Shown: positions 46,062 to 63,520 of the stretch, piece after piece
Layout: each line of letters begins with the position of its first letter
How positions within the stretch are numbered: the stretch's first letter is position 1
Source: Candidatus Omnitrophota bacterium
GTDB lineage: Bacteria > Omnitrophota > Gorgyraeia > Velamenicoccales > JABMQK01
Assembly (NCBI GenBank): GCA_028711115.1
Contig: JAQTSV010000001.1
Span: 902,032 to 966,031 of the forward strand
Direction of reading: 5' to 3'
Length of the DNA: 64,000 nucleotides
The notes under the pieces: model-generated
Database searches by the model: none
What the model saw: only the letters and a program-made list of their open reading frames with translations
What the model was told of the DNA's origin: nothing
Made by a program: the position numbers and the translations under genes

Positions 46062-46063
46062 TA

Positions 46064-47017: not shown

Positions 47018-47061
47018 GTTTTGCCTTCCTTTCGCTATGGCTATAGACTTTTCTGCTAAGA

Positions 47062-48486
47062 TTAGTTTTTATTCTTATGTGATTTTAGCCGTTCGAAATC
47101 ATCCTCAAATCTTTCTATATCATCCTCACCCAAGTAACTGCCTGTCTGCACTTCGATAAAAGTGAGTTTGTGATTTTCGTTATTTTCTATTCTGTGTCTT
47201 TGGCCGCGCGGCACATAAATACTCTCGTTACTCTTTACAAAATAAGTTTTATTTCCTATGGTAACTTTTGCAATGCCTTCCACGACTATCCAGTGCTCTG
47301 CGCGTCTTTGATGCAACTGAAGGCTGAGGCGTCTATGCGGCTCAACTTCTACCATTTTGGTTTTGAATCTTCCGGTATCATTCAAAACAAAATACCTCCC
47401 CCATGGTCTATTGACTAATCGTGGAGTCATATACTCAAAACGCTTCCTGGCTTTAAGAATATCTACTACTTCGGAAACTCTTTGTGCCTGTTCTTTGGGA
47501 CAAACTAAAAGCGCATCCGGCGTATCGGCGATAATCATATCTTTCAAACCCATAGCCACTACTAAATGATGACCACCCCAGACTGTAGTATTTTTAGTAT
47601 TTAAGGTTAAGACATCTCCGTAAATGGCATTCTTATTCTTATCACGATTCAGCACAAAATCTATGGTGTTCCAGTTTCCTAAATCTGTCCAGCCGCAATC
47701 CAAAGGCGCAACATATAAGCTGTCTTTACATTTCTCCATAATTCCGTAATCAATGGAAACGCTGTCCAGGGCATTCCATTTTCTTGTAAGCGACTTTTTG
47801 TTTTTCTCACCAAGCACGGAATAAAGTCTAGGCATAAATTTTTTAATCTTTTCTAACAAAACAGAGGCCTTCCAGATAAAAATCCCTCCATTCCAATAGA
47901 CTGTGCCTTGTTTGATAAGATTTTCCGCTAAACCAAGTTTGGGTTTCTCAATAAATTTTTCTACTTTGAAAGCAATCCTTTTCAAAGGCGATACCTTCTT
48001 ATTTATCTTAATGTACCCATAAGCGCTTTCCGCCCGCAAAGGCTTAATACCAAAAATTAACATAGTATTGAGTTTAGCCAATGCAAAAGATTTCTTTAAA
48101 ATAGCTGAGAAGACATTTTCTTTCTTGATAAAATGATCCGCCGGAAAAACAGCCATTACACCGTCGGGGTCTTTTTCTTGGATGATTTTTGCTACCAGCC
48201 CTATAGACGCAGCTGTATTTTTTGGCGAGATTTCTACGATTATATTATCTAAACAAAAACCTAATTCCTTAAGCTGATATCTTATGGCCTCGTCATAATC
48301 CTTATTGGTCACCACGTAAACATTTCGCGCTGGTATAATTTTAGAGATGCGTAAATACGTATGCTGCAAAAGAGAATAATTACCGAATATCTTGAGCAAC
48401 TGCTTTGGTTCTTCCTGCCTGCTCAAAGGCCAGAATCTTATTCCCTTACCACCTGCTAAGATTACTGCGTAATTCATCTTTTTCAC
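47062..48486 (-). CDS. manC: Mannose-1-phosphate guanylyltransferase / mannose-6-phosphate isomerase (bifunctional, type II PMI cupin)
   Basis: AVILAGGKGIRFWPLSR nucleotidyltransferase loop. C-terminal RPWGRY...LQLHQRRAEHWIVVEG...PRGQRHRIEN cupin. Confidence 0.9.
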   Translation of the reverse strand: MKKMNYAVILAGGKGIRFWPLSRQEEPKQLLKIFGNYSLLQHTYLRISKIIPARNVYVVTNKDYDEAIRYQLKELGFCLDNIIVEISPKNTAASIGLVAKIIQEKDPDGVMAVFPADHFIKKENVFSAILKKSFALAKLNTMLIFGIKPLRAESAYGYIKINKKVSPLKRIAFKVEKFIEKPKLGLAENLIKQGTVYWNGGIFIWKASVLLEKIKKFMPRLYSVLGEKNKKSLTRKWNALDSVSIDYGIMEKCKDSLYVAPLDCGWTDLGNWNTIDFVLNRDKNKNAIYGDVLTLNTKNTTVWGGHHLVVAMGLKDMIIADTPDALLVCPKEQAQRVSEVVDILKARKRFEYMTPRLVNRPWGRYFVLNDTGRFKTKMVEVEPHRRLSLQLHQRRAEHWIVVEGIAKVTIGNKTYFVKSNESIYVPRGQRHRIENNENHKLTFIEVQTGSYLGEDDIERFEDDFERLKSHKNKN

Positions 48487-48520
48487 TCCCTTAAATTATA
48501 TTTACGTTGTTAGAACCAAA

Positions 48521-49441
48521 TCATTCTAAACTTGCGATAGCAACGATTTCTCTGTCCTTAGAGCCAAATCGTATATTGTCTAAAATAGACATTATTTCTC
48601 CGTAGATGTGTTTCAGCAGGAAATAAAACTTTTTCTTGTCTGAAGGCACTCTGTAATTTAAATTTTGCCAGGAATTGCCCAGAACCACCTTGGACCTGAA
48701 GTAACAATTTAAAAGATTCCCAATGCTGGCTTGTCCGTCTGTCTTCATAAAGCCTTTTAAACCCGCTTTATCAAATAATAAATTCAGGGTGTCTTTACTA
48801 AAGTAAAAAAGATGCTCAAAAGGTTTTAAGTCTCCAAGGAAACTTTGAATTTTAGAAGAAAGCATAACGCTTTCAACGTTCGGTACTCTGATGTAAATAA
48901 TCCCGTCTTTGGCTAAAAAATTTTTAACCAGTTTTAAATATTCGAGAGGATTTTCAAAATGTTCCAACACATTATCCATCACAATCACATCAAATTTATT
49001 ATTATGTCTGAAATTTGCGATATCAGCCATATAGCAATCTAATCCTTGTTTTCTTGCATATGTTATAGCATTTTCACAAATATCCATGCCTGTGGCATTC
49101 CAGCCCTTAGAAATAAAAAACTCCATCAAAAAACCATAAGAGCATCCGATATCAAACAAGTTGCCCGGCTTTTTCTTATAACGAGAAATCTCTTGGTAGC
49201 ACGCCTTCATTTTATTTTTCCAATAATATTTATTCTTGATAACATAAGGACTGCTCTCATAAATATTATTATATATCGCCTCCAAAGAGCCGACTTGCCT
49301 GATTGTCTGTTGATAGCATAGATTGCATTTCTTACAATGAATGATTACAAAATCTTTGTGATTAATATAAATCTCTGCGCTACTATTATCATCACAAATT
49401 ATACAATTTTTAATTACCATTGTATCTTTATTTGAAATCAA
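48521..49441 (-). CDS. Class I SAM-dependent methyltransferase with N-terminal CxxC...CxxC zinc ribbon
   Basis: CIICDD...CKKCNLCY, then LFDIGCSYGFLMEFF, GMDI, MDNVLEHF, DGIIYIRVPN. Confidence 0.8.
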   Translation of the reverse strand: MISNKDTMVIKNCIICDDNSSAEIYINHKDFVIIHCKKCNLCYQQTIRQVGSLEAIYNNIYESSPYVIKNKYYWKNKMKACYQEISRYKKKPGNLFDIGCSYGFLMEFFISKGWNATGMDICENAITYARKQGLDCYMADIANFRHNNKFDVIVMDNVLEHFENPLEYLKLVKNFLAKDGIIYIRVPNVESVMLSSKIQSFLGDLKPFEHLFYFSKDTLNLLFDKAGLKGFMKTDGQASIGNLLNCYFRSKVVLGNSWQNLNYRVPSDKKKFYFLLKHIYGEIMSILDNIRFGSKDREIVAIASLE

Positions 49442-50879
49442 ATATATGCCCTATGACCTTTTTAAAACCCCTGAAGAAATATTTGATATCATTTGCATCT
49501 CTTATGGACATCATTCTTCTTAGAATAAATTCGGGGTTATAAGCAACGCTATAAATACCGTAAACCAATTCTGACATTTTATTCTTATCAAAAGCAGTTT
49601 TCATGACAGGATTCTTCATATCGTAATCATCCCAGTCTTGGCTTGTCAATTCACCACAGGATTTACATTCTTCAAATAATTTGCTGCCCGGATAAGGTAT
49701 GACTATTGTAGCCTGTACTGTATAGGCAATGCCTTTCTTTAAAAGCCATCTACCCAATTCAAGAGTCTTTAATGCATCTTCGTATGTCTCCCAGGGATAA
49801 CCGAACATTATGGTAATGTGAGGATAAAGCCCTGCTGCCTTTGCCATTTTGCACGACTTAATTATATCTTGGACGTTCAAATTCTTATTTATTTTATCCA
49901 GAGTCTTCTGATTGGCAGATTCAAGGCCGAACAATACCAATCTAAAGCCAGCCTTTTTCATCATCGCGTATTCTTCTTGCCCCAAGACTCCAAATCTCAT
50001 ATTGCAATCAATATTGACTTTTCTGTTAAGCCTTCTATTCATCATGCCTTCACAAAATTCAACAAGCCACTTTCCGACGGGGAAAGTGCCGGTGTCGTCC
50101 ATTATCTCCCTTACCCTGTATTTTTCCACCAACATATCTATTTCGTCGAGAACGCTGACAGGAGTCCTGGCTCTGAATTGCGGATATAACGTCGGCCAAG
50201 AACAGAATTTGCACTTACCCCACCAGCAATCACGCCCGGACATTATATATGTTCCCGGGGTCCTTTTGAAATTGCCGTTCTTGAAGGCGTATAATTTCCA
50301 ATTTGTCAATTCCCTGTCAATAAAAGGTAAACCGTCCAAATTGTGATTTAAAATAAACTGACCGGAGTTTTTAATTTCTGCATTATTCCTATAATATATG
50401 CCTGGCTCAAAACTATCATATGAACCCCCGTCTTTTAAAACACGGCATAAATTAAGCAGAAGGAAGTCGTAGTCGCCGCCGGTTAAAATAAAGTCGACTT
50501 GGGAATTTCGCATTGATTCTTCCGGCAATGCCGTAACATGATCGCCGCACAATACAACTTTAATTTTTGGATTCTGTTTTTTAATCTCGTCTATTATCTT
50601 CCAGTGTTGTTTGACAACAGGCGTCTTTGTTTCCATGGCAATGATATCGGGACTTTCTTTCTGAATAAATTCATAAAACTCGGGTTTTTCTATATTTTTA
50701 GCGATACAGTCTTTCCATAAAATATCAAAACCATCTTCTTTCAATAAAGTAGCTGCACAAGCTGGCACCACAGGATAAATATATGTCGGTTCCTTAAAAT
50801 ATTGAAACTGCCTGTTCTGGGAAAGCAGAGGCGTCCCCTTGGTTTTATCAAGCGGCGGATAGGTAAAGATTATCTTCAT
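49428..50879 (-). CDS. B12-binding-domain radical SAM enzyme, copy 3, with atypical CX4CX2C cluster motif
   Basis: N-terminal B12-like domain (DIIAMETKT, VVLCGDH). The cluster motif reads GRDCWWGKCKFCSW, verified on the DNA at 50202..50228. Confidence 0.7.
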   Translation of the reverse strand: MKIIFTYPPLDKTKGTPLLSQNRQFQYFKEPTYIYPVVPACAATLLKEDGFDILWKDCIAKNIEKPEFYEFIQKESPDIIAMETKTPVVKQHWKIIDEIKKQNPKIKVVLCGDHVTALPEESMRNSQVDFILTGGDYDFLLLNLCRVLKDGGSYDSFEPGIYYRNNAEIKNSGQFILNHNLDGLPFIDRELTNWKLYAFKNGNFKRTPGTYIMSGRDCWWGKCKFCSWPTLYPQFRARTPVSVLDEIDMLVEKYRVREIMDDTGTFPVGKWLVEFCEGMMNRRLNRKVNIDCNMRFGVLGQEEYAMMKKAGFRLVLFGLESANQKTLDKINKNLNVQDIIKSCKMAKAAGLYPHITIMFGYPWETYEDALKTLELGRWLLKKGIAYTVQATIVIPYPGSKLFEECKSCGELTSQDWDDYDMKNPVMKTAFDKNKMSELVYGIYSVAYNPEFILRRMMSIRDANDIKYFFRGFKKVIGHIFDFK

Positions 50880-51832
50880 AGCTCTTCTCTTAATCTAAAC
50901 GATAAAAAACCTTTAATAAAATTTAGCCCGTATGTCAAATGAGTCAATATTGAACCGGCGAATACATAAAAAGATAACTTAAGGCTTTTCTGAATACTGA
51001 AAACAAAAACAAAAAGTAAATAAAAAAGGGGCACATAAAAGAATCTTAAATCTGAAACCAAACCAAGGATTAACGAACCTAAAATAATAGCCGTCATAAT
51101 AGAAGGAATAAAGTATCCGAATTTAAGCGAAGTTTGCGGATAGCGTTTCAAAAAATAACCTCTGTGTGTAGCATAACTGACTATCTGGGAGAGATGTTTC
51201 TTAAAAAGCTGCCTTCTGTGGTGATATACAATAACCGCAGGGTCGTATAATATTCTTTTCTTTAGTTTATGCACAACCTCAAGGCACAAAATCGTATCCT
51301 CGCCAGGCCAAAACTTTGTCTTGAAACCTCCTATCTCTTGGAAAATATTATTTCTTATAAAAAAGTTACACGACGGAAAATCGTCTGTAAAACGCTTTCT
51401 TAAGGGGACATAGCGGAATCTGGCCGGACCACTGATTATCAAAGACTCATACACCTTACCGCTGGCTTTATTCAAAAATGGCTCGTTTTCCGGAGTTACA
51501 GCCGGGCCGCCTACGCAGGCGATTGATTCCTCATTAAAATTTATCACTGCATTCTTTAGCCAATCGGCTGTGGGATAGGTATCATCATCTAAGAAAGCAA
51601 GTATTTCGCCGCTGGCGTTACTGGCACCGATATCTCTTTTTGCAGCTGGCAGGGCCTTACCAGTGGCGATAATTTTTATATGTCTTTCATTATAAACACC
51701 CATCATATCGTCTGGCAGAATAATAACTTCAAAAAAAGGATAATCTAACTTAATGCAATGATCCACGCATTCTTCCAGCAAAGGATTATTCTGTTTTACG
51801 GCAATTATTATGGACACCGAGGGAAATATCAT
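50876..51832 (-). CDS. GT2 glycosyltransferase with C-terminal TM segments
   Basis: VSIIIAVKQNN, FLDDDTYP. C-terminal hydrophobic helices (FIPSIMTAIILGSLILGLV, FYVPLFYLLFVFVF). Confidence 0.7.
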   Translation of the reverse strand: MIFPSVSIIIAVKQNNPLLEECVDHCIKLDYPFFEVIILPDDMMGVYNERHIKIIATGKALPAAKRDIGASNASGEILAFLDDDTYPTADWLKNAVINFNEESIACVGGPAVTPENEPFLNKASGKVYESLIISGPARFRYVPLRKRFTDDFPSCNFFIRNNIFQEIGGFKTKFWPGEDTILCLEVVHKLKKRILYDPAVIVYHHRRQLFKKHLSQIVSYATHRGYFLKRYPQTSLKFGYFIPSIMTAIILGSLILGLVSDLRFFYVPLFYLLFVFVFSIQKSLKLSFYVFAGSILTHLTYGLNFIKGFLSFRLREEL

Positions 51833-51842
51833 ACCTAGACGT

Positions 51843-53255
51843 CTACTGCTCCTGGTTTTTAAACATATTATGTAAAACTAATTTTATGGCATTGAATACT
51901 AACCGCAATTGCTTTATGGATTTTACCCTTCTAATCTGTGAAATTATCTTGCCCGGCCTTAGATAGAATTCCCTGTATGCCCTCTTTTGCCAATAAATTA
52001 TTCTCTGGGGCTCTAAACCTGCCAACCGGTGTACTGGTTTGGTGTATATGCCATAATCATCGTAATTATCGCTTAATAGTAAATTATCTTTTTTCAATTG
52101 CTTATAAACCTCACTACCCGGGTAAGGTTTTAAAATATAGAATTTTGCAAAATCGGGGTCTATCTCTTTAGAAAAATCTATTGTCTCTCTGATAGTATAC
52201 TCTGACTCTCCGGGTAATCCGAATATCAAAAAAGCCCACGTTTCGAAGCCTAATTCTTTAGAAAGCTTGAAGGCTTTTTTTGTTGTCTCAAGAGGTATAT
52301 GTTTTTTGATATTCTTTAAAATTTCGGGATTTGCCGATTCAACGCCGTAACCAACCGTTTTAAAACCTGTTTCCTTCAGTGCCGTCAATATATCCCTATC
52401 TACAAAATCGGCTCGCAAGCCATTCATGAACTGAAAATTTACTTTAATATTCTGGTTTTTTATCTCCCTGCAAAAATCCAGAACTCTTTGCTTTATCAGA
52501 GTAAAGGTATCGTCCGCTATGTGAATTTCTTTTATGCCATTTCTATTAATGAGCTCTTTAATCTCTGCAATTATATTTTTAACGCTTCTTGCGCGAAATC
52601 TCCTGGAAAAAATTTGTTTTACGCAACAAAAAGAACATTCACCCGGACAGCCTCTGGAAGTAATTATTGTAGCGACTGGTAAGTCTGTCGCATCCGGCGG
52701 CATAAAGGCATTGGCATTCTTAATCAGGGCTATGTCTGGAAAAGGAAGCATATCTAAATTATCTATCAAAGGCCGCGCAGCGCATATTGTCGGACGGCCT
52801 TTTTCCTTAAACCAAATGCCCTTGATATTTCTCAAGTTCGGTGAGGGCTGTTCTAATTCCCTGAATAATTCATCAGCCGTTGCCTCCCCTTCGCCTACCA
52901 CGACAATATCAACAGAATCATTTACTATAATTTCTTCCGCGGTTATCGTGGCGTGGATTCCACCTAAAACGACAGGTATATTCTTAATCCCTTTTGATAT
53001 CCTTGCCCACTTTAGGGCATCATTTATTGTGGGCGTAACGCTTGTTATGCCCACGGCAGCGGGGTCAAATTCCTTAAAGACATCTTTAAATTTGTCTTCG
53101 TTTATACCTTCTGTATCAATATCTAATAATCGCACCTCGTGGCCAGAATTCTTTAAAACTGTCCCCACATACAATAAACCTAATGGCGGATAGGCCGGCA
53201 TTAGCTTTATACCGTATACTTTCTCCTGAGAAGGATTAATCAAAAGTATCTTCAT
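51843..53255 (-). CDS. B12-binding-domain radical SAM enzyme (class B), copy 4
   Basis: PLGLLYVGTVL, AVGITS, VLGGIH, then TSRGCPGECSFCC (CX3CX2C). Confidence 0.8.
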   Translation of the reverse strand: MKILLINPSQEKVYGIKLMPAYPPLGLLYVGTVLKNSGHEVRLLDIDTEGINEDKFKDVFKEFDPAAVGITSVTPTINDALKWARISKGIKNIPVVLGGIHATITAEEIIVNDSVDIVVVGEGEATADELFRELEQPSPNLRNIKGIWFKEKGRPTICAARPLIDNLDMLPFPDIALIKNANAFMPPDATDLPVATIITSRGCPGECSFCCVKQIFSRRFRARSVKNIIAEIKELINRNGIKEIHIADDTFTLIKQRVLDFCREIKNQNIKVNFQFMNGLRADFVDRDILTALKETGFKTVGYGVESANPEILKNIKKHIPLETTKKAFKLSKELGFETWAFLIFGLPGESEYTIRETIDFSKEIDPDFAKFYILKPYPGSEVYKQLKKDNLLLSDNYDDYGIYTKPVHRLAGLEPQRIIYWQKRAYREFYLRPGKIISQIRRVKSIKQLRLVFNAIKLVLHNMFKNQEQ

Positions 53256-53998
53256 TATCCAATCTTGTCGTAGTACTTTAAAATATACATCCTGTAAAAT
53301 ATCGCCATTGTGTCAACCCACATTTCAATAATTTCATAAATTCCGATACGATTAAATTCCCTTTTGGAATCAATTATTACAGGCGCCTCGGCAATCTTAT
53401 AGCCCAGGCGATGTGCGTTAACTAAAACTTCCAAATCAAAAGCAAAGGCCTTGACTACAATCTTGGGAAAAACCCTCTTCAGTACCTCGTACTTAAATAA
53501 CTTTAATCCGGTCTGAGTATCTTTTATGGGCAAACCAAACATAATTTTTATTAAGAAGAAATAAACCGAACTTATAATCTTTCTCTGCAAGGGATAATTT
53601 AATACAGAATTAGGATGCCTTTTCGAGCCTATAACTATATCCGCATTATCCAATTTCATAATATCGAAGAAAGTTTCTATCTGGGCGGGGTGCAAATCAA
53701 TATCCGAATCCAGGAATACTACATACTGACCTGTGGCAAGGCGGAAACCCTTCTTCAGCGCTCTTCCCTTGCCGTAATTTTCCATGTTCCTGGTAACTTT
53801 AACATTCGTAAATTTTTCTGATATATTTTTAATTTTCTGCAAGGTATCATCTGTGCTGCCGTCATCAATAACGATGATCTCAAAGTCTAAATTAAATCTT
53901 TTAAATGTATCTATGGTCTCAAGAATATTTCTTTCGATAACCTCTGCTTCATTAAACGCAGGCATAATAACTGAGATTTTTTCTTTTATGTCCATCAT
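53255..53998 (-). CDS. GT2 glycosyltransferase, polyprenyl-phosphate hexose synthase-like (Dpm1/GtrB type)
   Basis: SVIMPAFNEAEVI, VIDDGSTDDT, FLDSDIDL, QTGLKLF. Confidence 0.75.
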   Translation of the reverse strand: MMDIKEKISVIMPAFNEAEVIERNILETIDTFKRFNLDFEIIVIDDGSTDDTLQKIKNISEKFTNVKVTRNMENYGKGRALKKGFRLATGQYVVFLDSDIDLHPAQIETFFDIMKLDNADIVIGSKRHPNSVLNYPLQRKIISSVYFFLIKIMFGLPIKDTQTGLKLFKYEVLKRVFPKIVVKAFAFDLEVLVNAHRLGYKIAEAPVIIDSKREFNRIGIYEIIEMWVDTMAIFYRMYILKYYDKIG

Positions 53999-55935
53999 GC
54001 CTTCTTTTCCTTAAAGCTATACATGCTTCGTAAACCCAAATAAAACACCAACAGCGAAGAAATAAATAATATCGCTATTATTTCAAACAAAGTTTGGTGG
54101 AATAAAATTATGGCGATAATCTGCAAAAGCGAAATTATTAAGACAGAAACAATAAACCGTACATTGCTAAAAGACAGATTGTAAAATATAAAAATGTAAT
54201 CTAAAGCGAACAAGGCCATGGGGAAAATAATCAATCTCACCAAGGGGACACATTCTGCCAGGGCATTCCCGGAAATAACCCTTAAAACAAAACGAGGAAA
54301 GATAAATGTAAACACAATGGCCATAATGCATATTGCCGATACAAAAAATAGACTTTTCTTCAATAAGGGGACTATGTTTTTATTCTGCGTCTTATGCTGG
54401 ATGGTTACGGGAAAAAATACAAGCGCCAATGCGCTAGGAAGAAACAAAAGAATCTTACCGACTGTCTGGACGACAGAATAGATACCGGTATCATAGTCGC
54501 TGAAAAAATGTTTCACAAATATAACATCAGTACTTGTAAAAATAGTATAGGCTATCAAGGATATGCTCACAGGCAGAAAATAACCATAAATATCTTTTAA
54601 TCCAAGGCCGGTTTTATGCCGAACGTAATCCTTTCTATTCATCTTAAATACCCAAGAAGGAATCTGGAACAATGAGAATATGAAAGCAAGCGCTGCTGAG
54701 AGGATAAACCCTAAAAACGCGCCCAACGCCTTAAAGCCCAAAAATACAAGCAATATGCCTATAAAAAACTTACTCAACGACTGAATAATTGAATTGACGG
54801 CGATACCGTTAAAAAGGTGTATTCCCTGCATCGTGCCTATGGTCAATATCGACAAATTGCTAAAAAACATAAATAACGTAGAAAGGTATATAAATGTTTT
54901 GCTGTCTAAATTCAGGAAATTAGCGATATTCGGAGTAAACAATATAAAAATAAAAACAACCGCCAAGTTTATGATTACAATCCTCTTCAAAAAGGCACGA
55001 AATAGCGCCTGGATTTCTTCTTTCTTATCCAATGCCTTAAATTCTGAGAAATATTTTGCCAATACAGTCTGGATAATCACCGTGGGAAGCCCTGACACAA
55101 TAAGAAAAGAAGACATTGAATTCAATATCCCGTAATCCGTATAGCTGAGTTTTCTTATCATGAACAACCAAAATGCCAGGCTGAAAATATTCCCTAAAAG
55201 CGAAGATAAAAATATAATGCTGCCGTGTTTTATGACAGTATCATCCAAAAATAATTTAAGAATATGAAATCCTTCTTTAATCAGGTCTTTAAGGATAAAC
55301 CTGAAAAATCTTATCGTGTCCACGACAGGATTTATCTGGCTCTCCTGGCCTTCATAGATACTTTTTATTTCGGTGGAAGTTATGCGGTAATTCTTCTTGG
55401 CCGCCTGGATGAGGAGCTCCGATTCAATTTCATAATTCGAAGTGGAAAAAATCATATCTTTTAATACAGATTTCTTTATAAAACGAAAACCACACTGACT
55501 ATCTGGAATGTAAGTTTTACAGATGGAAGAAATTATCATAGACATAACTTTATTGGTAATCCAGCGGTGCAGCGGCATATTTTTGGGGTCGTCCATCCTG
55601 TTACCGACAATTATATCGCTGTTACTTTGAGAAAATTCGCGGATAAAATTATCTATGTCCTCCGGGCGGTGCTGGCCATCACCGTCCATTGTAATAATAA
55701 AATCATAGTCTTGGTTTATAACTTTATTGAAACCTGTGCGAAGCGACGCTCCTTTGCCCATATTACGGGTATGACGAATCACCTCGGCGCCTGCCTTCCT
55801 GGCAAACCCTGCAGTATCGTCTCTTGAACCGTCATCCACAACCAAAACGTCCAAACCAAATATCTTAACCTTAGAGATAAGGTTGTGGATAATTTTCGCT
55901 TCATTAAAAGTCGGTATTATTACACAACCTTTCAT
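53995..55935 (-). CDS. Fusion protein: N-terminal Dpm1/GtrB-like GT2 domain plus C-terminal MOP-superfamily polysaccharide flippase (Wzx-like)
   Basis: ORF extends to 55965, but the Met at 55935 (MKGCVIIPTFNEAK) forms an ATGA overlap with the upstream stop. GT2 motifs VVDDGSRDDT, TMDGDGQH, SQCGFRF. From about residue 235 there are about 12 TM helices with polysaccharide-biosynthesis/flippase-like composition. Confidence 0.7.
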   Translation of the reverse strand: MKGCVIIPTFNEAKIIHNLISKVKIFGLDVLVVDDGSRDDTAGFARKAGAEVIRHTRNMGKGASLRTGFNKVINQDYDFIITMDGDGQHRPEDIDNFIREFSQSNSDIIVGNRMDDPKNMPLHRWITNKVMSMIISSICKTYIPDSQCGFRFIKKSVLKDMIFSTSNYEIESELLIQAAKKNYRITSTEIKSIYEGQESQINPVVDTIRFFRFILKDLIKEGFHILKLFLDDTVIKHGSIIFLSSLLGNIFSLAFWLFMIRKLSYTDYGILNSMSSFLIVSGLPTVIIQTVLAKYFSEFKALDKKEEIQALFRAFLKRIVIINLAVVFIFILFTPNIANFLNLDSKTFIYLSTLFMFFSNLSILTIGTMQGIHLFNGIAVNSIIQSLSKFFIGILLVFLGFKALGAFLGFILSAALAFIFSLFQIPSWVFKMNRKDYVRHKTGLGLKDIYGYFLPVSISLIAYTIFTSTDVIFVKHFFSDYDTGIYSVVQTVGKILLFLPSALALVFFPVTIQHKTQNKNIVPLLKKSLFFVSAICIMAIVFTFIFPRFVLRVISGNALAECVPLVRLIIFPMALFALDYIFIFYNLSFSNVRFIVSVLIISLLQIIAIILFHQTLFEIIAILFISSLLVFYLGLRSMYSFKEKKA

Positions 55936-56774
55936 TCTTTCCAAAACTCCCGAAACATTAGCCATTGAGAAGGATCTTCGGCAATTTCTTGCTCTATTAT
56001 TTTGGTATACTTTTTCATCACTTCCAGCTCATTCATTTCACTTGAAATTTCTATAGGAGGCAGGCATTCCATTACGCAACGATCAAGCGATTGCCGCGTA
56101 ACAATTGTAGGCAAAATAGGCGCCCCTGTACGCAATGACAAAACAGCAGGACCTCGCGGAATGCTCTTCTTCCTCCCGAAGAAATCCAAAGGATAACCTG
56201 AATTACTAAAATCCCTGTCCCCCAGAATAGCGAGTACTTTGTTATCCTTCAAACCCTTGTAACACTGTTTTATAGAGCTACCCAGAGAAATAACTTCTAT
56301 GCCTTTGCTTTGTCTTCTTCTCTTGAAAAAATTATTTATCTCTGAATCCTTGTGGTCTAAAGCCACAACCATTAATTTATATCCTAAAATCGACAATGCC
56401 ATCCCAGCCAATTCCCAATTTCCAAGATGAGCAGCTAACAATATCACTCCCTTTCCTTTTTTCAGGGCATTATCTAAATTATCTCTTCCCTTTATAGAAA
56501 AATGCTTCTCAATATAGGCTTTATCTATCTGTGAAAAACGAAAGAACTCTATTAAATATAAACCGAAATTTACAAATACCTCTATTGCCTTCTTTCTTAT
56601 GACGTCTTCCTTTTCGTTTGGTAAAATAACCCGCAGGTTATTCATTACAGCATCTCTGTCTTTTTTAGAAATTGAAAATTGTAATTTTGCCAAGAAAACA
56701 GCCATCTTATAGGCGATATTCCACGGCAAAATAACGGCCAATATTTCACCAACTTTATATAAAATATTTAACAT
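55932..56774 (-). CDS. Lysophospholipid/lipid A-type late acyltransferase family (LpxL/HtrB/PatA-like)
   Basis: N-terminal membrane anchor. LAAHLGNWELAG (HX4E acyltransferase motif). 280 aa. Confidence 0.7.
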   Translation of the reverse strand: MLNILYKVGEILAVILPWNIAYKMAVFLAKLQFSISKKDRDAVMNNLRVILPNEKEDVIRKKAIEVFVNFGLYLIEFFRFSQIDKAYIEKHFSIKGRDNLDNALKKGKGVILLAAHLGNWELAGMALSILGYKLMVVALDHKDSEINNFFKRRRQSKGIEVISLGSSIKQCYKGLKDNKVLAILGDRDFSNSGYPLDFFGRKKSIPRGPAVLSLRTGAPILPTIVTRQSLDRCVMECLPPIEISSEMNELEVMKKYTKIIEQEIAEDPSQWLMFREFWKE

Positions 56775-57895
56775 AATCTCAAAGCTAGTTCTGCGATTTT
56801 TTGCGAAGATAAAGGTTTGGCTATTCTTGATATTTTTTCTTTAATAGAATCTAATTCGCGGGGGTTATTTAAAAGAAAAACCAATCTCTCAACCGCATCC
56901 TTAATATTGTCAGCTTTCTGTACAACGCCTTGTTTTACTAAAAAATTTGTATTATTCTGCTCTTGGCCTGGTAAGGGCTGGACTATTAACATAGGAAGGT
57001 ACTTTGCCAGGGCTTCAGCCGTAGTGACGCCGCCTGGTTTTGTGATTAAAATATCCGCTATTGTCATCAATTTGTCCACATAACCTATATATCCATAAAT
57101 ATGCATCTTATTCCTAAAATTACTATTCTTTAAATAATCATAAAGTCTTTTATTTATCCCCGTAACAATTAGAAAATGCGCATTGATTTTGGATTTATCC
57201 AGCGTATTTATAAGCTGCTTGATAGGACCTATTCCTCGGCCACCTCCCATAATTAAGATTACCGGCTTATCTAAGTTTATATTCAACTCTGCTGCGGTTC
57301 TATATTTATCCAATGGTTCTGAAAATCTAGGATCAATCGGTATACCCCAGAGCTTAATCTTATTGTCGGCCACTCCTTTCTTAAGTAGCGCCTTCCTGGC
57401 TTCTTCTGAGCCCACTGTATAGAAATCAATTTCATCATAAACCCAATAAGCATGAGGCATAAAATCCGTGACTACGGCGATTAATTTTATATCGGGATTG
57501 CAGTGCTTCTTGTAATCAGCAACCATGCCACAGGGAAAGGCCTGCGAGCATATAACGACTTTACAGTTCTCGGTTTCAATCAACCTTTTAATTTTATCGC
57601 GATTCTTTCTATAGACAGATTGTCTGAGATTACTTATCCTTCTGGCTACGGCAGGGTTATCATATAAAAAATCCCAAATTGCAGGGGCTTTATTTATAAC
57701 ACCCATATATATGGCATGGGTGACTTTTTCCATTATTGGATTGGTATAGCCAAAACCATCTATATTCAGCACCTGCGGATGGGGATTGAAGGCGTTAATC
57801 GCCTTTTCAATAGCCATAGTAGCACTGTGATGGCCGGATACATTGGTTATATACATAAGAAGTATCTTTTTATCCATAAACTGATAATTTAGCAT
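56768..57895 (-). CDS. MGDG-synthase-like GT28 glycosyltransferase, copy 2
   Basis: ILLMYITNVSGHHSATMAIEKAI N-terminus and TKPGGVTTAEA C-domain motif. Paralog of 21368..22465. Confidence 0.7.
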   Translation of the reverse strand: MLNYQFMDKKILLMYITNVSGHHSATMAIEKAINAFNPHPQVLNIDGFGYTNPIMEKVTHAIYMGVINKAPAIWDFLYDNPAVARRISNLRQSVYRKNRDKIKRLIETENCKVVICSQAFPCGMVADYKKHCNPDIKLIAVVTDFMPHAYWVYDEIDFYTVGSEEARKALLKKGVADNKIKLWGIPIDPRFSEPLDKYRTAAELNINLDKPVILIMGGGRGIGPIKQLINTLDKSKINAHFLIVTGINKRLYDYLKNSNFRNKMHIYGYIGYVDKLMTIADILITKPGGVTTAEALAKYLPMLIVQPLPGQEQNNTNFLVKQGVVQKADNIKDAVERLVFLLNNPRELDSIKEKISRIAKPLSSQKIAELALRLC

Positions 57896-57986
57896 AAAAC
57901 TTCTTATTTTACAACTAGTTTTGAATTCTGAACCCCTTTTGCCCTGAGTGGGCGAGGTAGGCTAAAATAGCGGTTTTTTGACTGGT

Positions 57987-58796
57987 TTAATCTAGTAAAG
58001 CGAGGTAGGTATTGCCCACACCTATGGCTCCCTGGATACGTAAAGGTATGCTATCTTTATCCTTTAGGAACCAAACTTTAAAACGCGGAGGAATACTCTT
58101 TATAAAAATGGCTTTGAATTGGCCTTTGGGTACTTTAATCTCGGTTTCCTTCTCTACCAGCATCTTTAACTGTTCAGTGGGAAGGCTGAATTCTATCTCG
58201 TCACCGATCTTATAGCTGTTATTCTTATATCGAAAATAATATAAAAGCAAAATTATGTTACTGATTTTACCTTTGCATTTAATCTTTTCGATGGTTGTTT
58301 TTCTGGCTTTGCGGGTAATTGTTACTTCATTTTTCTTTACGTCGTATTCTTCCAGAATATTTATGTTCTCACCTAGCAAATAAATTTTTCTCTCTACTCT
58401 TAAGGGAGTAAAACTACTGATATCGCCATAAATTATCTCTACATCACTAAAACCAGGGGCTCGTGATTCAAGAATAACAACGTCAGCCGAAACTCCACTT
58501 ATTTCTTTCTGGCCTAAGTAAGTTATGCCCACATTCCCGACTTTAAAACCTGCAGAATAAATACCGTATCTTAATTTTTCTCCTATCGGGAAAGGATACT
58601 TGGAAATGTTAACTTTAACTTCTTTTCCGACGAGATCAGCCTTTACGCCTTTGGCAAAACCTATAATTTCTTCGTAGGCGCTCTTTTTATATTCATTTAT
58701 ACGAGTCTCATAACAACTGAATATAAAAAAAAGTGCTGAAAAGAAAATTACCAAAATTAAAATAACAACCGTATTGTATTTTTTATGGATATTCAC
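57987..58796 (-). CDS. DUF3108-like exported protein
   Basis: N-terminal anchor VVILILVIFFSALFFIF. GEKLRYGIYSAGFKVGNVGITYLG... and a beta-rich body, as in DUF3108 family members. Confidence 0.45.
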   Translation of the reverse strand: MNIHKKYNTVVILILVIFFSALFFIFSCYETRINEYKKSAYEEIIGFAKGVKADLVGKEVKVNISKYPFPIGEKLRYGIYSAGFKVGNVGITYLGQKEISGVSADVVILESRAPGFSDVEIIYGDISSFTPLRVERKIYLLGENINILEEYDVKKNEVTITRKARKTTIEKIKCKGKISNIILLLYYFRYKNNSYKIGDEIEFSLPTEQLKMLVEKETEIKVPKGQFKAIFIKSIPPRFKVWFLKDKDSIPLRIQGAIGVGNTYLALLD

Positions 58797-59102
58797 TTAG
58801 GATAGGAAATCTCTCGCCTTTTCTCTGCTCTGGTGATGTTTTAAATCATTAAACTCAATACAAATAAGATCCGGTCTCTTTCTGCAGAGGATAGAGAGAT
58901 TCTTCAGACCAAAGTCGCTGGTTTTACGGCTGGTAATATAGCGAAATTCTGTATTGCATTTGGGGCAGGATTTTACGTTAGCATAATTCAAACCTAATTC
59001 TCTACACTTGAAACAATCGCCAGTCAAATCTCCTACTACCAACAGGTGCTGGCAAATTTCATCTAAATCAAATTCCTTTATTGTGCGTATCAAAACCTTC
59101 AT
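58797..59102 (-). CDS. Small hypothetical protein with CxxC...CxxC zinc-ribbon
   Basis: 101 aa. CFKCRE and CPKCN pairs. Abuts the downstream gene with no gap. No family recognised. Confidence 0.4.
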   Translation of the reverse strand: MKVLIRTIKEFDLDEICQHLLVVGDLTGDCFKCRELGLNYANVKSCPKCNTEFRYITSRKTSDFGLKNLSILCRKRPDLICIEFNDLKHHQSREKARDFLS

Positions 59103-59107
59103 TTTAA

Positions 59108-59512
59108 CTAAATCTTATAAACCTTGTCCTTGTGCCTTACTTTGCCTTTCACTAAAATGCCCATCTCCTGGCCTTTTTTTACCGATTGGACAGGCTGATG
59201 ATCAATTTGCATACTCGTAACCGGCTGTGTAAAATCAGTGGTATAACCTTTTATGCGAATCTTATCGCCTATTTGTAACGGGCCTTTCATTTTTAATACA
59301 ACTACTTTGATTTTAGAGAAATAATGAACTGCCTGCCCGACTAATTCTTCTTTTCTAACTGCGGGCTTCCTTAAGGATTTAGCGGCTGGCTTCTTCCTGG
59401 TTTTTCTGGTAACTGTTATCTTCTTTTTTATCTTCTTGCGGGGAGTTCTTTTAACGATATTTTTCTTAACCTTTTTCTTCTTTAAGAATTTCATTAATTT
59501 TCCGAAAACCAT
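59108..59512 (-). CDS. Small protein: polybasic Lys/Arg-rich N-terminal tail plus EF-Tu-domain-2-like beta-barrel
   Basis: The first 55 residues or so are about half Lys/Arg (KFLKKKKVKKNIVKRTPRKKIKKKITVTRKTRKK...). The C-terminus HYFSKIKVVVLKMKGPLQIGDKIRIKGYTTDFTQPVTSMQ resembles the small translation-elongation-factor-like proteins. GGGAGG RBS 6 nt upstream. Confidence 0.55.
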   Translation of the reverse strand: MVFGKLMKFLKKKKVKKNIVKRTPRKKIKKKITVTRKTRKKPAAKSLRKPAVRKEELVGQAVHYFSKIKVVVLKMKGPLQIGDKIRIKGYTTDFTQPVTSMQIDHQPVQSVKKGQEMGILVKGKVRHKDKVYKI

Positions 59513-59538
59513 TTGTTACCTCCCTGAGGCAATAATTT

Positions 59539-60630
59539 TTATTTAATATCAACTACTGAATTAAGCTCGCCGTAAGGATTAGGGGCCGTATGTGGATTCC
59601 TGGGATCGTTTAACCACTGGCCATCAACAACAAAACGATACTGATGACTGCCTTTGCTTAAGGGTATTTTTCTTATCCAAATGCCATCTCTTTTTTCCAG
59701 CATACTCTTTTCATCCATAGACCAATTATTAAAATCTCCGACGACAAATACAGAATGTGCTGCAGGCGCGCTAACAGAAAAAGTAACCATACCAAATTCT
59801 TTTAGTTTTGAGTGCGTGACTTTCTTAAACTCCTCAGAAATTTTCTCCATAGTTACCTGTTTTCCCGGAATATTCCTCTGCCCGGAAATAATTTCACGGG
59901 AAAGAGTAAAGTAATCCTTCGCTCCTCTGCAATACTTGTCATAATCTAAGACAGACTTTCCTGCGGCTTGGGATTCTTTAAGCTTAACATTTATATGTAT
60001 AATCGTTGAAAAAACTTTTTCTTTAAAATTGTTTTGTATGCGCCTTAATATATCGAAAGAATGGCGCAGGCGGGAATCAAAGATTGACACCAATACTCTG
60101 TAATCTACCTTGTGGCTGAGGCGTTCGCAGATTAAATCAATAATTTCGATAAGTCTAGCAACACCATCCACAGAAAAACGAGATGCCTCTACAGGTATAA
60201 TCGCTGAATTCGCTGCACGTAATGCGTTTATGGTTAATAAACCTAAATTGGGAGGGCAATCTATTAGGATATAATCATATTCGCTGCTCACTTCCGCAAG
60301 CACATCGCTCAACCTGCATTCCCTGCCTATCTCGTCGGAAAGTTCCTGCTCGATTGTACTCAAAATAATGGAAGACGGAACCAGATAAAAATTTTTGTCT
60401 AATTCAACTATGATATCTTTTAGCCTGCACTTATTTTTGGATATTTTCGATAACACGTCGTAAATACTGCGTTTGTTATCGATATTTAAGCCCATCGTTG
60501 CATGGGCCTGAGGGTCAAAATCAATAAGTAAAACTTTCTTACCGTTCATCGCCAGAGCAGCTGATAAATTTATTGCCGTTGTGGTCTTGCCAGTACCGCC
60601 CTTCTGATTACAAACAGCCGCTATCTCCAT
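59539..60630 (-). CDS. ParA/Soj-family deviant Walker A ATPase fused to a C-terminal CBM48 (AMPK-beta-type glycogen-binding) domain
   Basis: NQKGGTGKTTTAINLSAALA (deviant Walker A with signature Lys), LLIDFDPQ, ILIDCPP. Residues about 280-363, VTFSVSAPAAHSVFVVGDFNNWS...GSHQYRFVVDGQWLNDP, match the CBM48/AMPK1_CBM consensus. Confidence 0.8.
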   Translation of the reverse strand: MEIAAVCNQKGGTGKTTTAINLSAALAMNGKKVLLIDFDPQAHATMGLNIDNKRSIYDVLSKISKNKCRLKDIIVELDKNFYLVPSSIILSTIEQELSDEIGRECRLSDVLAEVSSEYDYILIDCPPNLGLLTINALRAANSAIIPVEASRFSVDGVARLIEIIDLICERLSHKVDYRVLVSIFDSRLRHSFDILRRIQNNFKEKVFSTIIHINVKLKESQAAGKSVLDYDKYCRGAKDYFTLSREIISGQRNIPGKQVTMEKISEEFKKVTHSKLKEFGMVTFSVSAPAAHSVFVVGDFNNWSMDEKSMLEKRDGIWIRKIPLSKGSHQYRFVVDGQWLNDPRNPHTAPNPYGELNSVVDIK

Positions 60631-60683
60631 TAATATCCTCCGTTCTTTAATTTTTATAAATAAATTTTAATAATGTTCTAATT

Positions 60684-61283
60684 TTACTCTGTAAAACGGA
60701 CTTCATCAATAAGAATTTTATCATTTTTGTCAGTGACATTCCAGTCTTCTACCATAAAAGTCAAAGTCTTTATTTGCGACCAATCTTTAACCAGCTTAAA
60801 ATCCGCCAAAGGCAGAACAAATCTCCTCCATTTGGAATTTATACCGGAGATATATTCCGCATCTTTCTCTAAAAGCGAATTCTCAATCTGTACTTTTATC
60901 GTAGAGTCGATTTTTGTTTTTTCTTCTGTCCTAATAGATAAAGTTAGAAAATGGTAACCGCTTAAATCTAAATTATCCAGATTAAATGACAAGGCCTTTA
61001 CCTTGCTGTTGCCTAATGAAGTGAAATCATACTTAATTACAATAGGTGTTTTATCGTGGAGAAGATATAAGCTTTTAGAGAATATTCTTTTCTCAACCAA
61101 AAAATAGTTTGATGCCAAAAACATTACCACGCAAATAATAGAAAATGCTGCTAAAATCCATAGAATTTTTCTCTTGGGTTTTTGTTTTACTTTTTTGTCA
61201 ATGAACGTCTTGGCAAGATGCTCGTAAACATCTTGTTTCATTCTAACATATTTCTTACTACTGTCAATAGCAGTATAGCTCAT
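60684..61283 (-). CDS. Single-pass membrane protein with extracytoplasmic beta-sandwich (CBM11/CIA30-like) domain
   Basis: TM ILWILAAFSIICVVMFLASNYFLV. The C-terminal 130 aa or so end ...TLTFMVEDWNVTDKNDKILIDEVRF, reminiscent of carbohydrate-binding beta-sandwich modules. Tentative. Confidence 0.35.
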   Translation of the reverse strand: MSYTAIDSSKKYVRMKQDVYEHLAKTFIDKKVKQKPKRKILWILAAFSIICVVMFLASNYFLVEKRIFSKSLYLLHDKTPIVIKYDFTSLGNSKVKALSFNLDNLDLSGYHFLTLSIRTEEKTKIDSTIKVQIENSLLEKDAEYISGINSKWRRFVLPLADFKLVKDWSQIKTLTFMVEDWNVTDKNDKILIDEVRFTE

Positions 61284-61327
61284 TTTAAATTAAATTTGAA
61301 ATCGGCTTTCCCGTCGGAAAAAACTAT

Positions 61328-62866
61328 TCATTCTAAAGGCTTATCCAAATCAACAGACGGCGACTGATTAATTATTTTATAAAAATTCCTCAGATGCATC
61401 CTGAACAATTCGTCAAACTGGCGCTGCTTGTCTCCATACCACCAAAACCAATCACTGCCTTCCAGTATATGAATCTGTTTCCAGGCTAATTCTGAAGGAT
61501 TCTCCGTTTGTTCTAATAATTTTCTGGCGCCAAGCAATAAATCCCATGCCTTATTTTTTGCAGGATTTCCAATCCATTTTGTAAAATCACCATTTATCCA
61601 CGAACCGGCTGCAATATTAGAAAGCTTGCCGATGTTTGGCTTTAAAGCTAAATATTCGCTCACCGTAACTGCCTTTATAAATTCTGAATTAGAAATTTTG
61701 GAATAAAGTAAATTCAAAAAATCCCTGCCATCATTTTTATAGTACTCCCAGGCATTCTCTCCATCCAAAGCCACAACCACCAGGCAATCTTTATTCTTAA
61801 AATGTTTATTTATGGAAGTAAGGTGGAACATAAAATCATCCACCGCTTTTTCTGTCTCCCAATATTGATAAACAAAACCAATCAAATCTGAAATATTCCT
61901 GTCACGGAATAAAACATTCAAATCTCCGTCGGGACACTCTAAGGCATATGATTTATAAATAAGCTCCGGTGTCCTGACTTTTCTCTTCAGCCTCTTTAAT
62001 AAAATTGATTCATCGGTAACTACCCAATTTATACCGTTTTCGATAAATAACGGCATAACCTGTTTTGCCACGGCTTCCTCGGAAGGCCACATACCCTGCG
62101 GTGGCTTGCCGAAATTTTCTTTATAACATTTTACTGCCTCCCGGATATGCCAGCGGCAATCATCAGGATAGCTAAAGTCTTTTTCCAGAAGCACCGTTTC
62201 CTTATTGGCATCCTTGGCTATCTTGGTATTATATAATAAAGGTAAGATAGGATGGTAAAAAGGGCTTATGCTTATTTCTATCTGCCCCTTGTCCTGGTAT
62301 TTCTTATATGTGGGGATTATCTCTTTTAAGATTTCTATCTGTTTATTTAAAATAATATTCTTATCTTCTTCATTGAAAAATCTTGCCTTTTTAACTAAAA
62401 TCTTCAGTTCCGGGATATTTTCTCTGAAATAAGGGTCGAACCAGGCAAGATTAAACCAAACCTGCAAATCCAGTAAATCCTGAGCGCTGAATTTCTTTTT
62501 ACTTTTGGCATTGAAATAAAGTTCATAATACCTGGGATGCAAAGCAAGAATCTTCTGCTTGTCAGCCATAAAGAAATTCCCTGTGATGAACTGACTCTCT
62601 TCTGCCGACAGTGAATCTGCCCTCTTTTTAGACAGCTCAAAGAATTTGTCGTTAGCACTGCCGTCCGTATAAGAATTGATCTGCTCAATTAAAGACGGCA
62701 CTAAATTAAATGTCTGGTGGATATTTGGGTATCCCTCCAGAATAGTCACCATATCCAGATAATCTTTTATGCCGTGCAGTCTTACCCAGGGTAAATTCGC
62801 TTTACCGCTTAAGAGATCGCGGTAATAAGGCTGGTGCATATGCCAGATGAAACTAAGATAAAGCAT
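61328..62866 (-). CDS. Glycoside hydrolase family 57 alpha-glucan-active enzyme (amylase / glucanotransferase / branching-type)
   Basis: N-terminal FIWHMHQPYYRD (GH57 region I), GMWPSEEAV (nucleophile Glu region), ALDGENAWEY (acid/base Asp region). Confidence 0.8.
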   Translation of the reverse strand: MLYLSFIWHMHQPYYRDLLSGKANLPWVRLHGIKDYLDMVTILEGYPNIHQTFNLVPSLIEQINSYTDGSANDKFFELSKKRADSLSAEESQFITGNFFMADKQKILALHPRYYELYFNAKSKKKFSAQDLLDLQVWFNLAWFDPYFRENIPELKILVKKARFFNEEDKNIILNKQIEILKEIIPTYKKYQDKGQIEISISPFYHPILPLLYNTKIAKDANKETVLLEKDFSYPDDCRWHIREAVKCYKENFGKPPQGMWPSEEAVAKQVMPLFIENGINWVVTDESILLKRLKRKVRTPELIYKSYALECPDGDLNVLFRDRNISDLIGFVYQYWETEKAVDDFMFHLTSINKHFKNKDCLVVVALDGENAWEYYKNDGRDFLNLLYSKISNSEFIKAVTVSEYLALKPNIGKLSNIAAGSWINGDFTKWIGNPAKNKAWDLLLGARKLLEQTENPSELAWKQIHILEGSDWFWWYGDKQRQFDELFRMHLRNFYKIINQSPSVDLDKPLE

Positions 62867-62982
62867 AACGGTTATGATCTGCGGTGATTACTTATTTTAG
62901 TAGAATTTTTTTAAACTCAACAATAATTATATAAAATTTACAGACAAAAAGAAACATTTTTATTTTATTTGCCGATTAGGAA

Positions 62983-63147
62983 TTACTTAGCGGATTTATC
63001 GTCGGAGTCCTTTCCTTTTACTTCCTTTTTGAATTCTTTGATTGCCTTGCCTAAGGCGCGGCCAATCTCAGGCAGACGCGAAGCGCCGAATACAAGCAAA
63101 ACAATCAACAAAATTACTATAAGCTCTCCTATACCAATCCTAAACAT
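62983..63147 (-). CDS. tatA: Twin-arginine translocase subunit TatA/E
   Basis: [42 protein letters not shown] is canonical TatA. I prefer the internal Met at 63147 over the ORF start at 63198 because AAAGGAGG lies about 7 nt upstream of it. Confidence 0.85.
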
Positions 63148-63456: not shown

Positions 63457-63491
63457 AAAAAAACCCTTGACGCCCAATCGGACGTCAAGGG
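63457..63491 (-). terminator. Rho-independent terminator downstream of the porin-like gene
   Basis: Perfect 9-bp stem, cccttgacg (63464..63472) with cgtcaaggg (63483..63491), and a 10-nt loop. On the minus strand the hairpin is followed by a T7 run (A-run 63457..63463 on plus). Lies 30 nt after the stop at 63521. Confidence 0.8.
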
Positions 63492-63520
63492 TTTAAAAAA
63501 CCTTGACTAAGGAATTATGC

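Follow-up and report, generated by a model that had tools for sequence, protein, structure and literature searches.

The window analysed here, a 64,000-nucleotide stretch of a Candidatus Omnitrophota contig (assembly GCA_028711115.1, contig JAQTSV010000001.1, positions 902,032 to 966,031), carries on its minus strand an open reading frame (ORF; 53995..55965) whose product joins a family 2 glycosyltransferase (GT2) to a membrane domain of the multidrug/oligosaccharidyl-lipid/polysaccharide (MOP) superfamily. The ORF, which is matched by full-length orthologues, spans 656 amino acids (aa) in the ORF list. Translation probably starts at M11 (ATG at 55935), which would yield a 646-aa protein (53995..55935): the M11 ATG overlaps the TGA stop of the upstream acyltransferase gene as ATGA (…GAATGAAAGG…), and 17 of 20 fusion orthologues start at this position with MKGC or MNGC. 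A preliminary description of the locus had given a length of 646-656 aa, of which the upper value is that of the listed ORF and the lower one the probable length. At its other end the fusion ORF has 4 nt (53995..53998) in common with a 247-aa ORF on the same strand (53255..53998), which is translationally coupled to it by this overlap and encodes a second soluble GT2, hereafter GT2b, that matches the dolichyl-phosphate mannose synthase (DPMS) of Pyrococcus furiosus (PfDPMS) in the PDB (E 2.8e-19 over aa 7-195). The overlap and the Dpm1-like character of GT2b had been recognized before; its position had been given as preceding the fusion, which on the coding strand it follows.

Two Pfam families account for most of the fusion protein. 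Glycos_transf_2 (PF00535) covers aa 14-170 (E 8e-25), and Polysacc_synt (PF01943) aligns with aa 246-521 at 25.1 bits, slightly below its gathering score of 28.2; in precomputed annotation, PF01943 and/or PF13440 (Polysacc_synt_3) are assigned to most fusion orthologues and unfused MOP relatives. An AlphaFold2 (AF2) model built from a 55-sequence alignment (predicted local distance difference test score (pLDDT) 91.6; predicted TM-score 0.73) consists of a GT-A domain (aa 13-200; 55366..55929), a single long amphipathic helix (aa 213-240) and 12 transmembrane (TM) helices. When the two halves were compared with the PDB using Foldseek, the N-terminal half retrieved ArnC, DPMS, GtrB and GpgS, and the C-terminal half (aa 243-655; 54001..55239) aligned best with WzxE, the flippase of lipid III (9g95/9g9o; TM-score 0.71-0.72), MATE transporters ranking next. 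Hydropathy and the distribution of Lys and Arg place K/R-rich segments before TM1, in a central loop (KMNRKDYVRHK) and at the C-terminus (KEKKA). This pattern fits an N-in/C-in topology for the MOP domain, and for that reason the GT domain would be cytoplasmic, as had been surmised. Model, structural matches and K/R pattern agree on a 12-TM, two-lobe MOP fold with N-in/C-in topology. The C-terminal half appears to be a MOP-type, Wzx-like protein rather than a member of some non-flippase membrane family, translocation itself being predicted. Pfam, AF2 and Foldseek together bear out the core of the preliminary description, a polyprenyl-phosphate-sugar-synthase-like GT2 covalently fused to a Wzx/MOP flippase of about 12 TM helices; the three motifs singled out there (VVDDGSRDDT, TMDGDGQH and QCGFRF) are all present in the translation.

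Origin of the fusion

A search of a 5.8-billion-cluster protein collection returned 20 full-length fusion orthologues of 641-657 aa (59-91% identity), from NCBI, ENA, JGI and Logan assemblies. The junction, with …DTIRFFRFILKD on one side and QIREGWFILKEFFND… on the other, is conserved among them and contains no stop, and the gene order of the window is repeated on the contigs of two of them (L081 and L082). Although a split state exists in related lineages, only 1-2 nt changes away, a sequencing or assembly frameshift that joined two genes can be dismissed as extremely improbable, because independent assemblies (at least 20, from four data sources) share the fused ORF and the conserved, stop-free junction. 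Mean identity among the fused proteins is 73% in the N-terminal half and 61% in the C-terminal half, and the catalytic residues are invariant.

The distribution of the fusion is narrow. A HMMER search of 1.84 billion representatives clustered at 50% identity returned one fused cluster only; the other top matches were stand-alone MOP proteins (27-40% identity) or stand-alone GT2s. In a neighbour-joining tree of 100 MOP domains, the 21 fused sequences form an exclusive clade, and the sister group holds all five loci (L007, L028, L083, L088 and L090) in which GT2 and MOP are encoded by separate adjacent genes in window-like synteny. Each of the five has an ATGA in which the stop codon of the GT2 gene and the start codon of the MOP gene overlap. 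The GT2 there ends in …RFFxFxFKK before its stop and the MOP protein starts with MKK…; in the fused proteins translation continues across this point and adds no linker, and the two states differ solely by a change of 1-2 nt around the ATGA. The junction segment of the window protein (aa 213-242; 55240..55329) is made up of the former C-terminal helix of a stand-alone GT2 and the former N-terminus of a flippase, which meet near aa 228 (around 55280..55290).

The gene order at L007 and L028 is ParA/CBM48, small protein, DUF3108, MGDG-synthase-like GT, acyltransferase, GT2, MOP, GT2b and a membrane-anchored GT2 (GT2tm); a B12-binding radical S-adenosylmethionine (SAM) gene, rSAM1, follows in L028, and the L007 contig stops inside GT2tm. 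The fusion is thus a single, recent, lineage-specific event in one Omnitrophota clade and, since its split sister lineages carry the ATGA overlap, arose by collapse of this translational-coupling overlap between adjacent genes.

The glycosyltransferase half

Family models place the N-terminal half near, and outside, two characterized groups. The best NCBIfam match is AglJ (TIGR04182; 124.8 bits versus a cut-off of 325) and the second PpgS (NF058614; 115.9 bits versus 370), so that the protein is best described as a relative of both families and a member of neither. A profile of the 21 fused proteins found PfDPMS (5mlz) as its best match in the PDB (E 1.6e-17 over 179 positions). A GpgS-like function was considered and discarded, the GpgS sequence match being limited to the first ~55 residues (E ~6e-4) as against 179 positions for DPMS.

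The functional sites described for PfDPMS are the DADLQH motif, Arg117, Arg131 and Ser135 at the acceptor phosphate, and Lys178, which contacts the phosphoester (PMC5526996). We mapped them onto the profile alignment with the fused proteins. The metal/donor motif of PfDPMS, 89-DADLQH-94, corresponds to D94-G-D-G-Q-H99 of the window protein (55669..55686) and is invariant in the 21 fused proteins; the two acceptor-phosphate arginines, Arg117 and Arg131, are conserved as the likewise invariant R123 and R134. Ser135 and Lys178 are replaced by an invariant Asn (Asn138) and an invariant Glu (Glu179). In view of these two replacements, the N-terminal half would be a relative of the polyprenyl-phosphate glycosyltransferases and not a bona fide mannose synthase, and its sugar is probably not mannose.

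After the GT-A core comes the amphipathic interface helix (aa 213-240; DTIRFFRFILKDLIKEGFHILKLF), in which the stand-alone orthologues terminate. Close relatives of the N-terminal half are found fused to GtrA, to DUF2062, to a DUF368/undecaprenyl-phosphate (Und-P)-translocase-like domain or to a PMT-type GT-C, a set of partners that suggests polyprenyl-phosphate chemistry. Two of these relatives (P0104 and P0187; 40-45% identity) carry PF04018 (VCA0040/DUF368, Und-P-translocase-like), an architecture that would amount to a carrier-recycling translocase joined to a carrier-charging enzyme.

Gene neighbourhoods of the two halves

Upstream of the fusion on the minus strand lie a gene for an LpxL/PatA-like acyltransferase (55932..56774; Lip_A_acyltrans, E 2e-51), whose best NCBIfam match is a phosphatidylinositol mannoside acyltransferase, and, as the first gene of what we call the trio, a homologue of the monogalactosyldiacylglycerol (MGDG)-synthase/UgtP-like glycosyl-diacylglycerol synthases of family GT28 (56768..57895; Pfam, NCBIfam and synteny). 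A DUF3108 gene (57987..58796) precedes them; its syntenic position ahead of the trio is restricted to lineages that possess the MOP module described below. The genomes that match most closely are all labelled Omnitrophota or bear a Planctomycetes-type label given to metagenome-assembled genomes of this group. We called ORFs at 80 Omnitrophota genome loci (L001-L080) and scanned them with one profile for each half, taking flanks of up to 10 kb on each side. Stand-alone GT2 orthologues at these loci are about 220-250 aa long (~225 typically) and 44-58% identical, and are followed by unrelated, housekeeping-looking genes, for example one that on visual inspection matches a protein-L-isoaspartate methyltransferase. 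Judging from gene content, the trio of MGDG-like GT, acyltransferase and ~225-aa DPMS-like GT2 may represent a phylum-wide envelope glycolipid pathway; it flags a conserved, unstudied gene set in Omnitrophota.

The flippase half keeps different company. Downstream of GT2b on the minus strand, the window encodes rSAM2, an extra B12 radical SAM protein (51843..53255) that L081 and L082 lack at this position, then the 318-aa GT2tm (50876..51832; assigned by Pfam, NCBIfam and synteny) and the HpnJ/BchE-like rSAM1 (49428..50879). We used an alignment of the MOP subfamily to scan metagenome contigs and classified the neighbours in 80 MOP loci, two of which are fused. A GT2a-type gene (the type found in the fusion) is directly upstream of MOP in 4 of 54 evaluable loci, and a GT2b-type gene is directly downstream in 27 of 61. 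GT2tm recurs as well, as does rSAM1 (phmmer scores of 500-770 bits), sometimes in permuted order. Within the MOP domain, Asp480 and His486 are conserved across the subfamily. The most conserved member of the set is rSAM1, 64% identical between the window and L028 as against 36-52% for the other members. According to the two sets of neighbourhoods, the core partners of the flippase would be GT2b, GT2tm and rSAM1, and those of the fused GT2 the two upstream enzymes; the fusion appears to bridge two modules that also work apart.

The MOP–GT2b–GT2tm–rSAM1 module recurs without a fused GT2 (it spans 49428..55239 in the window and is also seen at L084, L091, L092, L095, L102, L129, L136, L158, L164 and L166), in Omnitrophota and Elusimicrobiota records and on many unclassified metagenome contigs; unfused MOP relatives occur in candidate phyla radiation (CPR) bacteria and DPANN archaea, too. 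The idea that L084 encodes a divergent GT2 ahead of its MOP gene was rejected (hhalign probability 0.9%, no Pfam match). In the Elusimicrobiota assembly GCA_042563375.1, a protein of 1103 aa (P0207; L166:7001-10312) combines GT2b, MOP and GT2tm in one chain, and two B12 radical SAM genes flank it. P0207 represents a separate fusion event, in which this MOP subfamily has been joined to other partners. Multi-domain proteins composed of MOP and GT2 domains, with or without GT4 (among them P0332-P0356 and P0360-P0376), are numerous in metagenomes, where they bear generic names only; they measure 770-1680 aa overall, with orders such as MOP-GT2-GT4 (~1040-1150 aa) and GT2-GT2-MOP-GT4 (~1550-1680 aa).

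Discussion

Building on the domain families, fold, motif conservation, topology, fusion origin and conserved neighbourhoods, all of them directly supported, we consider with moderate confidence that the locus is best explained by a clade-specific fusion in which a cytoplasmic GT charges polyprenyl monophosphate and the MOP domain flips the lipid-linked glycan of the operon. We infer that the GT domain, at the inner membrane face, would most likely transfer a non-mannose sugar from a nucleotide sugar to polyprenyl monophosphate, and that the species carried by the MOP domain to the periplasmic face would most likely be the operon's lipid-linked glycan. The fused GT could contribute to, or initiate, the product of an assembly line formed by GT2b, GT2tm and the radical SAM protein. 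The fusion would tether an otherwise peripheral enzyme at the entrance of the flippase and fix the stoichiometry at 1:1, possibly with some channelling between the halves. Because GT2b, GT2tm and a B12 radical SAM protein are the recurrent companions of the flippase subfamily, its substrate is more likely to be a product elaborated by these enzymes than a bare monosaccharide; the GT2b–MOP–GT2tm chain of P0207, with its flanking radical SAM genes, is in keeping with such an assembly line. Precedents are the MOP or MATE flippases proposed for sugars on polyprenyl monophosphate, namely AglR and Agl15 (PMC3871713) and that of the undP-Ribf system (PMC11127046). As for the hypothetical coupling of synthesis to translocation proposed in the preliminary description, the covalent architecture behind it is real; the neighbourhoods, on the other hand, do not single out the fused GT2 as the dedicated partner of the flippase.

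Several observations weigh against the explanation we favor. In 78 of the 80 Omnitrophota loci, the stand-alone GT2 orthologue has no MOP homologue within the flanks, and it nearly always lies downstream of the MGDG-synthase/UgtP-like GT and the LpxL/PatA-like acyltransferase; conversely, in at least one Omnitrophota genome (L084), MOP, GT2b, GT2tm and rSAM1 occur together and neither GT2a nor the MGDG-like GT nor the acyltransferase is close by. It follows that the two halves can function independently and that their fusion could be incidental. Furthermore, all NCBIfam matches of the N-terminal half are far below the cut-offs, the replacement of Ser135 and Lys178 means that the acceptor could differ, and no conserved periplasmic acceptor enzyme adjoins the fusion.

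One could also envision a broader picture, possible though rather unlikely, in which the fusion is the tip of a widespread, uncharacterised pathway. The module would assemble, on polyprenyl monophosphate or a different lipid, a sugar head group remodelled by the radical SAM enzyme, and would then export it, and the window clade would have captured a housekeeping DPMS-like enzyme, yielding a self-contained synthesize-and-flip protein. If true, such a protein would provide direct evidence, open to testing, that sugars linked to polyprenyl monophosphate are handled by a MOP transporter.

The preliminary description had envisaged a strict three-component arrangement, with the MOP domain dedicated to the polyprenyl-phosphate monosaccharide made by its own GT domain and the flipped product serving as donor for a periplasmic GT-C enzyme encoded at 23025..24266 or 33985..35757. 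This arrangement appears unlikely. The DPMS-like motifs of the GT domain agree with it, as does the presence, twice independently, of a DPMS-like GT2 directly N-terminal to the MOP subfamily (GT2a here, GT2b in P0207). Moreover, the flippase proposed for the polyprenyl-phosphate-pentofuranose donor of the undP-Ribf system is of the MATE family, within the MOP superfamily (PMC11127046), and AglR has been proposed for dolichyl-phosphate (Dol-P)-mannose (PMC3871713). The product of 23025..24266 is indeed a GT-C of family GT87 (PF09594, E 6e-27); its gene, however, is about 30 kb from the fusion and directly follows an ArnC-like GT2 gene of its own (24263..24964). For the 590-aa product of 33985..35757, Pfam, NCBIfam and PDB sequences all gave no match, and a single-sequence AF2 model (pLDDT 41.9) is unusable; the protein, which combines numerous predicted TM helices with a soluble C-terminal portion and is encoded among GT2 and methyltransferase genes, resembles a GT-C or polymerase by eye only. 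Homologues of neither candidate were found in the flanks of any related locus, and we saw no genetically linked GT-C in the fusion operon, in those flanks or in module loci such as L084. Neither proposed partner is thus linked to the fusion, and the recurrent partners of the flippase are GT2b, GT2tm and rSAM1 rather than the fused GT2.

The notion that the fusion is incidental deserves separate consideration. Here the GT2 would belong to the upstream trio and the MOP protein to the downstream module, the latter acting as a mere membrane anchor with no hand-off of substrate. Conservation of the trio without a MOP gene in nearly all 80 Omnitrophota loci and the existence of the module without GT2 are in line with this notion, and the lack of a linker, the minimal difference from the split forms around the ATGA and the confinement to one 50%-identity cluster would suit an accident. 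We nevertheless judge it improbable: the fusion has been retained down to 59% identity with its junction helix conserved, the split ancestors were already co-oriented and translationally coupled in one operon, and independent fusions of other GT2s to the MOP subfamily suggest a functional physical association.

It is also worth weighing whether the acceptor might be a glycerolipid. The GT domain would then extend the (acylated) glycosyl-diacylglycerol of the upstream enzymes, and the MOP domain would flip the glycolipid as an analogue of LtaA in the export of the lipoteichoic-acid anchor. The constant association of the GT2 with the MGDG/UgtP-like GT and the PatA/LpxL-like acyltransferase, and the loss of Ser135 and Lys178 of DPMS, lend this idea some appeal. 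It remains very unlikely in our opinion, as the nearest relatives in sequence and structure are polyprenyl-phosphate glycosyltransferases, the two phosphate-binding arginines are invariant, and the domain partners of the relatives (GtrA, DUF368 and PMT) point to polyprenyl phosphate. To our knowledge, no MOP member transports diacylglycerol glycolipids.

Relation to known systems

The polyprenyl-phosphate reading that we favor invites comparison with several established systems. In the Gtr (GtrB/GtrA/GtrC) and Arn (ArnC/ArnEF/ArnT) pathways, as in the proposed scheme, a cytoplasmic GT2 makes a polyprenyl-phosphate sugar that a membrane protein flips, and the N-terminal half matches the ArnC and GtrB structures. 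These pathways differ in using small GtrA- or SMR-type flippases that are separate proteins; GtrB and ArnC have C-terminal TM helices of their own, and no GT-C is linked to the fusion. The C-terminal half shares with Wzx (WzxE, 9g95) the 12-TM MOP fold, the Polysacc_synt/Polysacc_synt_3 domains of most of its orthologues and a location among glycosyltransferase genes, at a sequence identity of about 16% to WzxE. Classical Wzx proteins, in contrast, stand alone and handle repeat units linked to undecaprenyl diphosphate whose synthesis is started by a phosphoglycosyltransferase; no phosphoglycosyltransferase, Wzy or Wzz was seen in the fusion operon. In mycobacteria, PpgS/Rv3632 and Ppm1 (D1-D2) exemplify soluble DPMS-like synthases that depend on, or are fused to, a polytopic membrane partner, which differs from the present one in being a small GtrA-like protein or an Lnt-like domain and not a MOP protein.

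Two further parallels concern the DPMS-like enzymes of archaea. In type III DPMSs, a GT2 is covalently attached to a GtrA-like TM domain, for which a role as Dol-P-mannose flippase was proposed in 2026 (PMC12992685). PfDPMS (5mlz/5mm1), an enzyme of this type, resembles the fusion in having a GT-A domain with DxDxQH and conserved acceptor-phosphate arginines; in both, amphipathic helices at the membrane interface connect the catalytic domain to a TM domain, which in the archaeal enzyme has a proposed role in product flipping (PMC5526996, PMC12992685). The differences lie in the partner (4-TM and GtrA-like there, 12-TM and MOP/Wzx here), in the replacement of Ser135 and Lys178, and in the bacterial host. 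Fusions of GT2 to GtrA (PF00535+PF04138) are in fact common among relatives of the N-terminal half. In the haloarchaeal Agl pathway, the Dol-P-linked glycan begun by AglJ is lengthened by other GT2s, and the Wzx-like AglR/Agl15 are implicated in flipping (PMC3871713). A DPMS-like GT2 starter, extension by GT2s (AglG/I/E) and a Wzx-like flippase all have counterparts here, and unfused MOP relatives are present in DPANN archaea; the present host, however, is bacterial, the proteins are fused and no oligosaccharyltransferase is linked.

MprF and proteins with a PplT domain provide precedents of another kind, being synthase–flippase fusions (10.1101/2022.03.11.483950) in which a lipid-modifying enzyme is joined to the translocator of its own product. 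In fold and substrate they are unrelated to the present fusion; MprF acts on an aminoacyl-phospholipid and its flippase is not a MOP protein. Together with type III DPMS and the GtrA, DUF368 and MOP+GT2 fusions, MprF contradicts the generalization in the preliminary description that synthase and flippase are separate proteins. The synthase–flippase design is already known; what is new here is a DPMS-like GT at the N-terminus of a Wzx-like MOP protein, with a clear evolutionary history. We found no published description of a GT2–Wzx/MOP fusion, of the Omnitrophota trio or of the MOP–GT2b–GT2tm–rSAM1 module, although absence from the searched literature is not proof.

The identity of the flippases for polyprenyl-monophosphate sugars, such as Dol-P-mannose, Und-P-glucose and Und-P-Ara4N, is still argued, mostly from genetic context, and direct evidence is scarce (PMC11127046, PMC12992685). 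The fusion, its split ancestors and the independent fusion of a paralogous GT2 in P0207 constitute Rosetta-stone evidence that MOP transporters can serve DPMS-like synthases. Its interest is limited by the narrowness of the clade and by the familiarity of the design principle; even so, the protein might offer a single-polypeptide system for reconstitution and cryo-electron microscopy of putatively synthesis-coupled flipping.

Other genes in the window

The GT87 gene mentioned above is part of a separate locus (21368..27615) that comprises genes for a DUF3108 protein, a DegT aminotransferase, a GT2, the ArnC-like GT2, the GT87 enzyme, a haloacid dehalogenase (HAD) phosphatase and a second MGDG-synthase-like GT. 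The last is 30% identical to the product of 56768..57895, and the locus is partly paralogous. Its gene content suggests an Arn-like system for lipid-linked aminosugars in which no flippase gene is obvious. At 27662..31748 there is a group of genes for a VTC-domain protein, a 907-aa protein with a weak CotH match only and a DUF4956 protein.

Four B12-binding radical SAM genes (41531..42931, 43783..45231, 49428..50879 and 51843..53255) are found between 41531 and 53255, interleaved with genes for GT2s, SAM methyltransferases, a GDP-mannose pyrophosphorylase (47062..48486) and a GDP-mannose-dehydratase-like protein. The neighbouring genes at 59539..60630 and 61328..62866 encode a ParA/MinD-type ATPase that carries a fused CBM48/AMPK glycogen-binding module and a GH57 enzyme; in L081 and L082 the two occupy the syntenic position upstream of the cluster, and parts of the pair recur in L028 and L083. 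Throughout the window (1..64000), nearly all long ORFs are on the minus strand, many of them with overlaps of 1-4 nt, and the GC skew is negative from end to end.

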